Origin: Clostridia bacterium
Lineage (GTDB): Bacteria; Bacillota; Clostridia; Christensenellales; UBA1242
Reading direction: 5' to 3'
Assembly: GCA_045650505.1 (NCBI GenBank)
Contig: JAZRRE010000030.1
Span: forward strand, 78,285 to 142,284
Length of the DNA: 64,000 nt
Made by a program: the position numbers and the translations under genes. Within the stretch, counting starts at the first letter, position 1; each line of letters begins with the position of its first letter. The notes under the pieces are model-generated. The model had not been told where the DNA came from and made no database searches. It worked only from the letters and a program-made list of their open reading frames with translations. Shown one piece after another: positions 19,113 through 31,973 of this stretch.

Positions 19113-20459
19113 ATGAAATTTAATGAAACCGGCGCTTTTATTTTAAGCGAAACAAAAAATGGTGAAAGAATTGTTTCTTGTGGTGGAAGAATTTCAACAC
19201 AACCAGGAACAGCCGTTGAACTTTACAAAAAAGCAACAGACAAAGAAAAGAACTTGAAACTTGTTTCAAGAGTTGTTGCTTCTGGTCACAAAACCATTCT
19301 CGAGCACCACTATTTCAACATTGCTTTCAACAATGTCAGCATTTTTATTGAACAATATTTAATCGAGTTTAGACTTGCTTCATTCACAATCAAGTCGGGC
19401 AGATATGTAAACTTCTCAAGCGCAGGTTTCAACCTTCCAAACTCATTCACTGATGAGCAAAAGAAACTTTTGAAAACACACTATAAAAAGATGTTCAAAA
19501 CTTATGACAAATTTGTTGCAGCAGGCATTCCTGTTGAAGATGCAAGATTTGTTTTGCCTTATGGTCTTAAAACCAACATTTATATGAGTATGAACGCAAG
19601 AGAGCTTGTTCATATCATCTGCTCAATGATTTATGGCAGAGGCAAATATTATGAAGAAATCATTGAACTTGGCTTGCAATTAAAAGCACAATTTGACGAG
19701 CGTTATCCAGGCCTTATTGAAGCAAACTCAAAATATTACACTGAAGACTTAAACAAAGTGCTTCAAATTTCTCAAGAACCTTGCAAAAAACCTGAATTTG
19801 TTTCACACTCTGCAAGCCTTATTTCAGGTTCAACTGGTAGTGGCGAGGCAATCAATGAATTTGCAAAAGCAAGTGGCTATGAAAAGTTTGACTTTGAAAC
19901 AGCCTTAAAAGATGACAAACAATCAAAACTTCTTGAGCATTTCTCATACACATTCAAAGTTAACCACTTTGCACTCATCATTTTAAAACACTATTCAAGA
20001 CACAGAATGCAAACCCTTTCAACTGCTCCAATCGTTCAAATGGCAGGCATTAACAAATTTGTTATTCCTGAAACAATTTTAGCAGAACCAGAACTTAAGA
20101 CAGAATTTGAAAAATGCATTAAAGAAAACAGAAGAATTTATAACAAATTACTCGAACAAAACATTAACCCATATTTAATGATTTACATCACCCCACACGC
20201 GACAGCAATTGACTTTGTTTCAACAATGAACGCTCGTGAACTTCTTCACTTTATGAACCTACGCACTTGCTCAAGAGCACAATGGGAAATCCGTTATCTT
20301 GCAAACGATATGCTTAAACTTTTAAAGAAACACGACCCAACACTTTTTGGTGGATTTGGTCCAAGTTGCTACACTTATGGCGTTTGCCCTGAAGGCAGAC
20401 TCTGCTGCGGAAAGCAAGCTGAAATGAAAGCAAAATTTGATAATTTGGAGAACGACTAA
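19113..20459 (+). CDS. thyX: FAD-dependent thymidylate synthase, tandem two-domain form
   Basis: GHKTILEH, EDARFVLP, MNAREL twice, RHR, LRTCSRAQWEIR; ATG 19113 after AGGAG. Confidence 0.9.
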   Translation: MKFNETGAFILSETKNGERIVSCGGRISTQPGTAVELYKKATDKEKNLKLVSRVVASGHKTILEHHYFNIAFNNVSIFIEQYLIEFRLASFTIKSGRYVNFSSAGFNLPNSFTDEQKKLLKTHYKKMFKTYDKFVAAGIPVEDARFVLPYGLKTNIYMSMNARELVHIICSMIYGRGKYYEEIIELGLQLKAQFDERYPGLIEANSKYYTEDLNKVLQISQEPCKKPEFVSHSASLISGSTGSGEAINEFAKASGYEKFDFETALKDDKQSKLLEHFSYTFKVNHFALIILKHYSRHRMQTLSTAPIVQMAGINKFVIPETILAEPELKTEFEKCIKENRRIYNKLLEQNINPYLMIYITPHATAIDFVSTMNARELLHFMNLRTCSRAQWEIRYLANDMLKLLKKHDPTLFGGFGPSCYTYGVCPEGRLCCGKQAEMKAKFDNLEND

Positions 20460-29316: not shown

Positions 29317-29913
29317 TTACATCTCTTTTCTGTCAGAAAGTGCTCTTGAAAGAGTGACTTCATCAGCATACTCAAGTTCACTTCCCATAGAAATACCCTG
29401 CGCAATTCTCGAAACTTTAACACCAAGAGGCTTTAAAAGTTTTGCAATATACATTGCTGTTGCTTCACCTTCAACATCAGGGTTTGTTGCAATAATAACT
29501 TCTTCGGTTCCATTTTCAGCAACCCTAGAAAGAAGTTCTTTAAGTCTAATATCATTTGGTCCAACACCTGCAAGAGGGTTAATTGTTCCGTGCAAAATGT
29601 GATAAGCACCTTTGAACGAACTTGTGCGCTCAATAGCCATTGCATCTTTTGGTTCTTTCACCACGCAAATAGTTTTGCTTGAACGCTCTCTGCAAACTCT
29701 ACAAGGGCTTGTTTCGGTATAGTTTCCACACACTTCACAAAACTTAATTTTTGCTTTAACATTCATAATAGCATCTGCAAAATTTTTGGCACCCTCATCA
29801 CTTGCACGAATGATATGATAAGCATATCTTTCAGCAGTTTTCTTGCCCACGCTAGGAAGTTTTGAAAACTCATTAATCAGCCTTGCAATAGGTTCAATTT
29901 GATTAATATCCAC
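29317..29913 (-). CDS. recR: Recombination protein RecR
   Basis: LPSVGKKTAER, C4 zinc finger, ATNPDVEGEATA Toprim. Confidence 0.97.
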   Translation of the reverse strand: MDINQIEPIARLINEFSKLPSVGKKTAERYAYHIIRASDEGAKNFADAIMNVKAKIKFCEVCGNYTETSPCRVCRERSSKTICVVKEPKDAMAIERTSSFKGAYHILHGTINPLAGVGPNDIRLKELLSRVAENGTEEVIIATNPDVEGEATAMYIAKLLKPLGVKVSRIAQGISMGSELEYADEVTLSRALSDRKEM

Positions 29914-30358: not shown

Positions 30359-30838
30359 TTAATAATTTGTCTTTTTTTCTTTAATGACAAGTTTTCTGCC
30401 AAGCAGTCTTTTAAGCTCATCAATTTCTGTTTTATCTTCAATAATTTCTTGCACTTTAAAGCTCAAGCCCTTGCTTTCAAAAAAGTTTGAAATCTCTGCA
30501 TAATACCTTTCATTTTTTTGAAGTTCAATAATGTCTTTATCTTCTGAAAAAATCACTGCTGTTTTGCCATCAAGCTCAATTTTTGAAATCTGCCTGCAAA
30601 GCATTAAAAGTGACATCGACTTTGCTTTTCGAAGATTAACAAGCAACTCACCTAAAAGTTTGATTGAACCATTATTTTGGGTTTGAGTTGAACTTTTTTC
30701 ACTTTCATCAAAAATCGGTTTGTTTTTAATTTCTTGCTTGATGCTTGAAATTTCTGTTTCTAGTTTTTGAACCACTTGTTTTGTGACTTCAATTTCATTT
30801 TTTGAAAGTTTCTTTTCACTTGAGCCGTTATCTGGGAA
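30359..30838 (-). CDS. dnaX: DnaX C-terminal (tau-specific) part in the +1 frame
   Basis: Frame overlaps the dnaX stop; no SD before GTG 30775; fusion gives 537 aa. Confidence 0.65.
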   Translation of the reverse strand, partial: FPDNGSSEKKLSKNEIEVTKQVVQKLETEISSIKQEIKNKPIFDESEKSSTQTQNNGSIKLLGELLVNLRKAKSMSLLMLCRQISKIELDGKTAVIFSEDKDIIELQKNERYYAEISNFFESKGLSFKVQEIIEDKTEIDELKRLLGRKLVIKEKKTNY

Positions 30839-31973
30839 ACTTGAGATTCTTCACAAATTCTTCAAGTTTTTCAACTCTTGCTTCTAAACTAGCATCAGTA
30901 ATAACTTTAATGATTGCAGTTTCAAGCACAATTCTTGGTTGAACTGAATAACGAAGTTCTTGCTCAATTTCACTTAAAACTTCAATTGCCTTAACCATAA
31001 CAGCATAATTTTCTTTTGTGGCTTGTGCTTTCATTTTTTCAAAAATGTCATCTTTAACAACCACAATTTCACGAGATTTATCTGCTAAAGTGTAAACCAA
31101 AAGCAAATCTCTAAAATATGAAATCAAATCATTTGAGAACACAAGTGGACTTTTGCCTTGAGATAACACTTTGTCAAGTTCAACAAGTGCCTCACCCACA
31201 TTTTTTGTTAAAATATGGTCTGTGATTTTAATTAAAATTTCTCTTTCTGAAACACCAAGCACTGCAAGCACTTTTTGGTAAGTGAGTTCATCACCTGCAA
31301 ATGAAACGCAACGGTCAGCAATCGAAAGTGTGTCACGAACTGAACCTTCGCCTGCCCTTGCAATAATGTTTATTGCTTGCTCATCATATTTCACATTTTC
31401 ACTATCGAGAACTTTCTTTAAAAGTGAAGATAACTCTTCAAGTGAAACAAGTTTAAAATCAAATCTCAAACATCTTGAAAGAATAGTTGCAGGAAGTTTG
31501 TGAACTTCGGTTGTTGCAAGCACAAACACTGTGTGTGCTGGTGGCTCTTCAAGAGTTTTTAAGAGTGCATTGAATGCAGATGTTGAAAGCATATGGACTT
31601 CGTCAATGATATAAACTTTATATTTTCCAACCACAGGTGGATATTTCACTTTTTCACGAAGTTCACGAATTTCATCAACGCCATTGTTTGAAGCAGCATC
31701 AATTTCTAAAACATCGATGTTTGTGCCATCAAGTGATTTGCAAACATCACACTCAAGACAAGGTGAACCATCTTTTGAACTAGTGCAGTTTATTGCTTTT
31801 GCAAAAATTTTCGCAGTGCTGGTTTTTCCTGTTCCACGGCTACCACAAAAAAGATATGCGTGTGAAATTTTATCAAGCTTAATTTGGTTGATTAAAGTTT
31901 TCACAATATGGTCTTGACCGATAACTTCATTGAAAGTTCTTGGTCTATATTTTCTATAAAGTGCCAAATACAT
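30828..31973 (-). CDS. dnaX: DNA polymerase III gamma/tau, domains I-III
   Basis: ALYRKYRP, GSRGTGKT, DEVHML, SRC; ends at 381 aa. Confidence 0.97.
   Translation of the reverse strand: MYLALYRKYRPRTFNEVIGQDHIVKTLINQIKLDKISHAYLFCGSRGTGKTSTAKIFAKAINCTSSKDGSPCLECDVCKSLDGTNIDVLEIDAASNNGVDEIRELREKVKYPPVVGKYKVYIIDEVHMLSTSAFNALLKTLEEPPAHTVFVLATTEVHKLPATILSRCLRFDFKLVSLEELSSLLKKVLDSENVKYDEQAINIIARAGEGSVRDTLSIADRCVSFAGDELTYQKVLAVLGVSEREILIKITDHILTKNVGEALVELDKVLSQGKSPLVFSNDLISYFRDLLLVYTLADKSREIVVVKDDIFEKMKAQATKENYAVMVKAIEVLSEIEQELRYSVQPRIVLETAIIKVITDASLEARVEKLEEFVKNLKFPR

Follow-up and report, generated by a model that had tools for sequence, protein, structure and literature searches.

A probable +1 frameshift at a rare proline codon in the dnaX gene of a genus of gut Clostridia

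The gene dnaX is the textbook recoding gene of bacteria and, to our knowledge, all the cases described so far involve either a -1 frameshift or transcriptional slippage. In Escherichia coli the shift is by -1 at A AAA AAG, in Thermus thermophilus slippage occurs on a run of nine A residues, and in both species tau and gamma are obtained from one gene through a change of frame near the end of domain III, a feature shared by the locus described here. In these two genes, however, frame 0 encodes tau and recoding yields gamma, the change being by -1 or made at the RNA level, and the E. coli site uses Shine-Dalgarno (SD) and hairpin stimulators, none of which was found at the present site.

The reversed arrangement, with the gene in two open reading frames (ORFs), has also been described. 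In all 17 published two-ORF dnaX genes the break at the DNA level is by -1, and 12 of them carry runs of 7-10 A (Antonov et al. 2013, NAR 41:6514, PMC3711429); such genes are also covered by Atkins et al. (2016, PMC5009743). As in these genes, the frame-0 product of our locus is of gamma length, a stop comes right after the putative recoding site, and tau, whose C-terminal part lies in a second ORF, would need recoding; unlike in the published ones, the break is by +1 at TTT CCC AG and no A-run is present. The reversed gamma/tau logic is already published for the -1/A-run genes (PMC3711429), and what is new here is confined to the +1 direction and to CCC-A as the signal. In the openly accessible full-text literature that was searched (subscription-only papers lie outside this scope), and in passages of PMC3711429, PMC5009743 and bioRxiv 10.1101/2025.10.02.679949, no mention of a +1 dnaX was found; nor, within the same scope, was a CCC-A signal that has no adjacent stop, or the recurrence of such a signal beside -1, continuous and split dnaX.

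Three +1 systems are close to the site. In the 'shifty stops' CCC_UGA and CCC_UAA, of which natural uses are listed in E. coli pheL, a Listeria phage tail gene, the phages SPP1 and Q54 and some antizymes, peptidyl-tRNA-Pro slips by +1 on CCC, CCC_UGA being especially prone to it (Gurvich et al., PMC3082878). In pheL the shift is stimulated by the Phe residue preceding CCC rather than by its codon; this Phe is crucial there, which fits the invariant Phe-Pro at the dnaX junction; loss of tRNAPro(GGG) raises shifting (PMC3082878). Unlike at the classical sites, the common sense codon AGA follows CCC in our gene and the stop comes one codon further on, which counts against a +1 reading. When tRNAPro(UGG) is the sole reader of CCC-A in E. 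coli, a +1 shift of 4.2% is observed, rising to 11.6% without m1G37, an effect ascribed to an exchange of the weak U34-C3 pair for U34-A4 in translocation (Demo et al. 2021, PMC8324841). The same four bases and the same tRNA species are found here, and the in vitro mRNA of that study, AUG-CCC-AGU-U, contains the CCC-AGU-U of four members of our genus; the model is nevertheless an artificial reporter with 4-12% shifting, whereas dnaX would offer a natural, conserved signal in an essential gene, in an organism whose only tRNA-Pro found is UGG. The third system, the CUU UGA C site of prfB (RF2), is likewise a chromosomal bacterial +1 frameshift needed for a full-length product, but there UGA occupies the A site, an SD lies upstream and RF2 regulates its own synthesis, and no such elements were found in the dnaX of the window.

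Layout of dnaX in the window

The window is the whole stretch of 64,000 nucleotides that was analysed. On its minus strand dnaX is followed, between 29317 and 30311, by a ybaB/ebfC-like ORF (MANRFGGFGGG..., ending at 29913) and recR (29913..29317); ybaB and recR are the usual neighbours of dnaX in Firmicutes.

Frame 0 of dnaX starts with the ATG at 31973, and at the junction the minus strand reads AAG TTT (30839-30837) CCC (30836-30834) AGA (30833-30831) TAA (Table 1). Pfam places the ATPase PF13177 (E 5.5e-45), the lid PF22608 (E 1.9e-13) and domain III, PF12169 (E 3.6e-15, residues 231-371), on the 381-aa part, so that frame 0 stops immediately behind domain III. Open for 163 codons from 30850, the +1 frame overlaps frame 0 by 23 nt; reading CCCA as one step yields a fused protein of 537 aa. 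An earlier note on this DNA had described just such a split at TTT CCC AGA TAA near the end of domain III, a downstream ORF overlapping by about 7 codons and bounded by a +1-frame TGA, and a fusion of that size, and its layout and coordinates are borne out.

Table 1. Features of the dnaX locus in window coordinates
Feature	Position	Strand	Basis
dnaX frame-0 ORF, 381 aa and TAA; gamma-length product with clamp-loader ATPase, lid and domain III	30828..31973	minus	Pfam
Putative recoding motif TTTCCCAG: TTT CCC AG in frame 0, T TTC CCA G in frame +1	30832..30839	minus	Identical in 19/19 dnaX-holding genus genomes
CCC-A, proposed shift point of tRNA-Pro(UGG), CCC to CCA	30833..30836	minus	CCC rarity, tRNA set, PMC8324841
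Frame-0 stop TAA, one codon past CCC, terminating the short product	30828..30830	minus	Stop directly after AGN in 18/19 genus loci
TGA closing the +1 frame upstream; 5' limit of the shift window	30851..30853	minus	Frame reading
Linker in +1 frame, poorly conserved, without a conserved start codon	30677..30832	minus	Alignment; 0 +1-frame stops over 44 codons in 20 loci
Conserved C-terminal domain (LLGELLxxLR...), tau-specific, predicted KH-like alpha/beta fold	30362..30676	minus	Aligns with the C-end of continuous DnaX in other genera; predicted model
+1-frame stop TAA, end of the proposed 537-aa tau	30359..30361	minus	Frame reading

The N-terminal AAA+ ATPase, lid and domain III identify the frame-0 product as DnaX, and the tau-specific C-terminal domain is recognized by sequence. 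The downstream ORF matches the C-terminal end of continuous DnaX frames of 488-600 aa from other genera of the family, the best match being a 506-aa protein (G041, E 2.3e-18), and the fused readings align end to end with the continuous DnaX of sister genera. Six invariant or near-invariant residues stand out in an alignment of 27 C-domains. Searches with the ORF gave no significant match in Pfam, only E 0.17 or worse in a PDB profile search with the C-domain, and no Foldseek match at E <=0.001. The structure model of the domain has a mean pLDDT of 83, and its best fold match is DnaA domain I (4tps_D; Z 9.6, rmsd 2.0, 76 residues), followed by DciA (Z 5.3) and the C-terminal chain of E. coli tau (5fku_E; Z 4.9, 70 residues). 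These three presumably share a common KH-like fold, and the fold evidence for a tau domain is weaker than that from sequence, the match to 5fku_E scoring well below that to DnaA domain I.

Conservation in the genus and relatives in the family

The genus of the window comprises 21 species-level genomes; dnaX was found in 19 of them, and the two that gave no dnaX match are 56% and 85% complete. In all 19, frame 0 ends at TTTCCCAG and the +1 frame stays open for 135-177 codons past the stop. TAA or TAG follows AGN directly in every locus except L016, where it comes 7 codons later, and the N is A in 7 loci, T in 4 and C in 8. Over the 93 nt anchored on the site (-48..+45 nt), TTTCCCAG is the only fully conserved block and TTTCCCAG.TA the only one common to at least 17 of the 19 sequences. 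In six genomes of the genus, one of them represented by two loci, the +1 frame opens just 2 codons before TTC, and the shift must therefore fall within about five codons that include TTT CCC AGN. The alignment with related dnaX genes that the earlier note had called for thus shows the break and the motif in all the dnaX-holding relatives of the genus and a continuous ORF in none of them.

In a quick maximum-likelihood tree of 65 DnaX N-terminal parts, the DnaX proteins of the genus form a clade (SH-aLRT 99) whose sister is a genus with continuous dnaX, and the enclosing clade (support 96) is mostly continuous. In the aligned column the sister genus has L-P-A-K, encoded by CTT CCA GCA AAA, and another continuous genus has CTT CCT GCT AAA; the TTT CCC AGC TAA A of our genus corresponds to the sister-genus sequence with one extra C. 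A single C added to the ancestral CCA accounts for the shift codon as well as for the stop. The site probably originated in such an insertion and was then kept.

The family shows other forms of the gene as well. Among the 150 dnaX frames listed from 201 family genomes, 56 are of at least 480 aa and 94 of at most 418 aa (counted by eye). Among 23 short genes read in other genera, the break lies at a run of 6-10 A in 21, and these continue in the -1 frame; the gene of G066 goes on in the +1 frame, and the last one runs into a contig end. Most of the short genes at L042, L044, L048 and L051-L070, from other genera, and at L105, L106, L113, L117, L118, L125 and L148 have the A-run, followed by a stop, and the tau C-part in the -1 frame. 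Two-ORF dnaX of this -1/A-run type seems to be the majority state in this family of gut Clostridia with genomes of roughly 1 Mb. A further 80 loci from named Clostridia records included 11 short ones: seven with an A-run and a -1 break, one from the genus of the window, two with +1 breaks at CCC TAG or CCC TAA, and one shorter but complete gene.

CCC-based +1 junctions recur outside the genus. The gene of G066 (L057) reads TTA CCC AGT TGA and that of G227 (L104) TTG CCC TAG, both with +1 continuations; each is the sole genome of its genus, and as the two junctions are unreplicated, an assembly error is possible for both. The genus of G228 provided 15 loci, of which eight have CCC TAA with a +1 continuation, two AAA TAG with a +1 continuation, two are continuous, one is uninformative and two have a separate ORF for the C-domain. 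G227 and the G228 clade thereby carry exactly the CCC TAG and CCC TAA of 'shifty stop' sites, and together with G066 they indicate that CCC-based +1 dnaX is recurrent.

Two further forms were observed in the G228 genus. In L192 and L193 dnaX ends with AAA TAG and the C-terminal part lies in the +1 frame (AAT AGT ...), possibly reached by a +1 shift on a Lys codon beside the stop, unlike at the CCC sites. In L198 and L199 the ORF for the tau C-domain is in the -1 frame and has its own ATG a few bases past the dnaX stop, preceded in L198 by the SD GAGGGG. This looks like a truly split dnaX with the C-domain untethered from the clamp loader, and an unlinked C-domain may therefore be viable in this group.

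Ways of reaching the downstream frame

In the 44 codons that follow the Pro codon, the 20 loci together have 0 stops in the +1 frame, 139 in frame 0 and 54 in frame +2; the +1 frame codes from the motif onward. In the window its first ATG, GTG or TTG is the GTG at 30775, 20 codons past CCA, and nothing resembling an SD precedes it. At five of the 20 loci no such codon occurs at all between the motif and the conserved domain; at the remaining ones (L008 was not scored by the pattern used) the candidate starts differ in position, and none is preceded by GGAGG. The continuation ORF is accordingly free of an initiation signal of its own, in agreement with the earlier note, which had reported no SD for the downstream ORF.

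The way in which this frame is entered can be explained by more than one model. Nothing was found in favour of an assembly or sequencing indel in the MAG as the source of the break, and against it stand the identical junction in 19/19 genus genomes, the public proteins and independent contigs. Residues 340-440 of the fused reading, compared with about 5.8 billion public proteins, gave 83 clusters, all of 379-382 aa; every one covers 38-43% of the query, corresponding to the part before the junction, and none spans it. Contigs of three runs from three studies (X1 record 2, X2 record 11 and X3 record 17), which come from relatives, that is, other strains (shared sampled words <=0.11), bridge the junction with 0 gaps and provide the independent sequence support that had been asked for. 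An indel is refuted by these results and retains practically no probability, and no continuous form of dnaX was found in the 19 genomes or among the 83 clusters that match the junction region. The single extra C relative to the sister genus would also account for the layout if a frameshift mutation had simply inactivated the gene, with tau destroyed, the downstream frame a relic and only the 381-aa protein of importance. The +1 frame, however, has remained open for its full 135-177 codons in 19 species whose DnaX proteins have diverged down to 74% identity, and the C-domain keeps its near-invariant residues and a confident predicted fold, purifying selection on it being already visible; such a relic is most improbable.

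Two further models keep a functional C-domain and dispense with a shifting ribosome. The C-terminal ORF could be translated separately as a free protein, from a weak or non-canonical start or by re-initiation, as the separate ORFs of L198 and L199 and the GTG 20 codons into the frame of the window would allow. This is unlikely in view of the five loci that lack any start before the conserved domain and of the unconserved candidates elsewhere; moreover, independent initiation does not need a +1 frame that is stop-free right from the motif in 20/20 loci, and it leaves the invariant rare CCC and TTTCCCAG without a reason. Transcriptional slippage, in which RNA polymerase would omit one base at TTTCCC and the edited mRNA would be read normally, as on the A9 of Thermus dnaX, would give an identical protein sequence, and it is plausible in most other genera of the family, which have A8-A10 runs at the dnaX break (PMC3711429). 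At our site, however, the run is only T3-T6 followed by C3, well under the at least 8 nt cited for slippage (PMC3711429), and the other +1 lineages read TTACCC, ATCCC or TGCCC, with no usable run. We regard slippage here as very unlikely, and slippage, a relic and an artefact taken jointly as less probable than independent initiation.

With the break conserved, no indel and no conserved start or SD, the best reading is the one put forward in the earlier note, namely that gamma is made by default and tau by recoding, and programmed +1 ribosomal frameshifting in dnaX is considered likely. Standard decoding would give a clamp-loader subunit of 381 aa, similar to gamma and ending FPR-stop. On a fraction of the ribosomes, the CCC read by the sole tRNA-Pro found in the cell (UGG), with its weak U34-C3 wobble, would be exchanged for CCA by a slip of one base, and these ribosomes would continue in the +1 frame (F-P-D-N-G-S...) through the linker and the C-terminal domain to give tau of 537 aa. 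Across the genus, tau would most likely be obtainable only by a +1 slip on this rare Pro codon. We infer that the ribosome, rather than RNA polymerase, shifts and that it does so at CCC-A. Perhaps no more than a few percent of the ribosomes would shift; as a cell needs only few replisomes, this level could suffice.

The CCC codon, its tRNA and the wider meaning

In the genome from which the window comes (31.6% G+C), CCC is the rarest Pro codon, with 160 of 9225 Pro codons (1.7%) in 893 long ORFs. ARAGORN found 36 tRNA genes in it, with a single tRNA-Pro, of anticodon UGG, and in a homology search UGG was also the sole tRNA-Pro found in four other genomes of the genus (two of them in 4-5 contigs) and in G228. 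The set of 36 is incomplete, tRNA-Lys(UUU) being missing although AAA is very common; this limits any claim of tRNA absence, and a second tRNA-Pro is possible. None of the 36 has an 8-base or otherwise odd anticodon loop. TrmD and EF-P, which keep tRNA-Pro from slipping by +1, are both present, and their loss is thereby rejected as a cause of shiftiness; their presence counts against a +1 reading.

One of the features expected of a +1 site is a conserved P-site codon whose tRNA is able to re-pair at +1, and this is found in the CCC that is invariant in 19/19 loci and in tRNA-Pro(UGG). The earlier note had proposed that the Phe and Pro tRNAs both re-pair at +1 on UUU CCC A. The Pro part of this proposal, from CCC to CCA, is retained; tandem re-pairing of tRNA-Phe is not required, as the codons before CCC in the other CCC-based +1 dnaX lineages are TTA, TAT, CAT, TGT, TGC, AAT or TTG. 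A slow A-site codon beside the shift codon is present in the relatives with CCC TAA or CCC TAG, and absent in the genus itself, where AGA (7497), AGT (4892) and AGC (2406) are all common codons. No SD-like stimulator is visible on the 5' side in the anchored genus sequences, and on the 3' side RNAalifold predicted 0 pairs for 18 of them (-5..+70); these two results count against the +1 reading. An invariant G follows CCCA; it opens a variable +1 codon (GAT, GCT or GTT) and is not accounted for by the +1 model.

If these suggestions are correct, several consequences follow. We lean towards the view that this clade of small-genome gut Clostridia has turned a rare CCC and its sole known tRNA-Pro(UGG) into a compact +1 signal for the essential tau, a second chromosomal +1 site of bacteria beside prfB, having in the genus neither a stop or rare codon in the A site nor an SD or RNA structure, and being of multiple origins. 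Such origins (CCC AGN stop, CCC TAA and CCC TAG) would then lie within one family that also uses -1/A-run, continuous and split dnaX, and the site would be a natural counterpart of the laboratory CCC-A model and would illustrate how an indel came to be rescued by frameshifting and was then fixed. If the +1 site is conserved in this way, the tau/gamma split can be reached from either direction, a four-base CCC-A with a single tRNA-Pro can suffice in nature, and an essential gene that has gained one base can be rescued by translation and maintained in that state throughout a genus. With continuous, -1, +1 and split dnaX side by side, the family would offer a natural setting in which to study the amount of tau that a replisome requires. 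Since all 83 public clusters are called as proteins of 379-382 aa, the tau form is missing from the databases.

The motif itself is not confined to dnaX. Another 39 in-frame CCC-A occur in the 893 long ORFs, with no clear avoidance, and as these are tolerated, the motif on its own cannot shift ribosomes with high efficiency. In the test for avoidance of in-frame CCC-A or CCC-AG, 2 cases were observed where 4.7 were expected, a deficit that is not significant (P 0.13; 0.046 when dnaX is left out). CCCAGNTRA/TAG occurs at 26 sites in the genome, and only in dnaX is the site both preceded by a long ORF in frame 0 (405 codons) and followed by a long one in frame +1 (158 codons). This two-frame layout is absent at the other 25 sites, as it is at all 13 non-dnaX TTTCCCAGNTAR loci examined in the genus, and the layout of dnaX at CCC AGN stop is more than chance. 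Outside the window, on the minus strand of contig C6 of the same genome (around position 19727), a frame downstream of a chance CCCAGATAG site is open for 6877 codons and may represent a giant gene.
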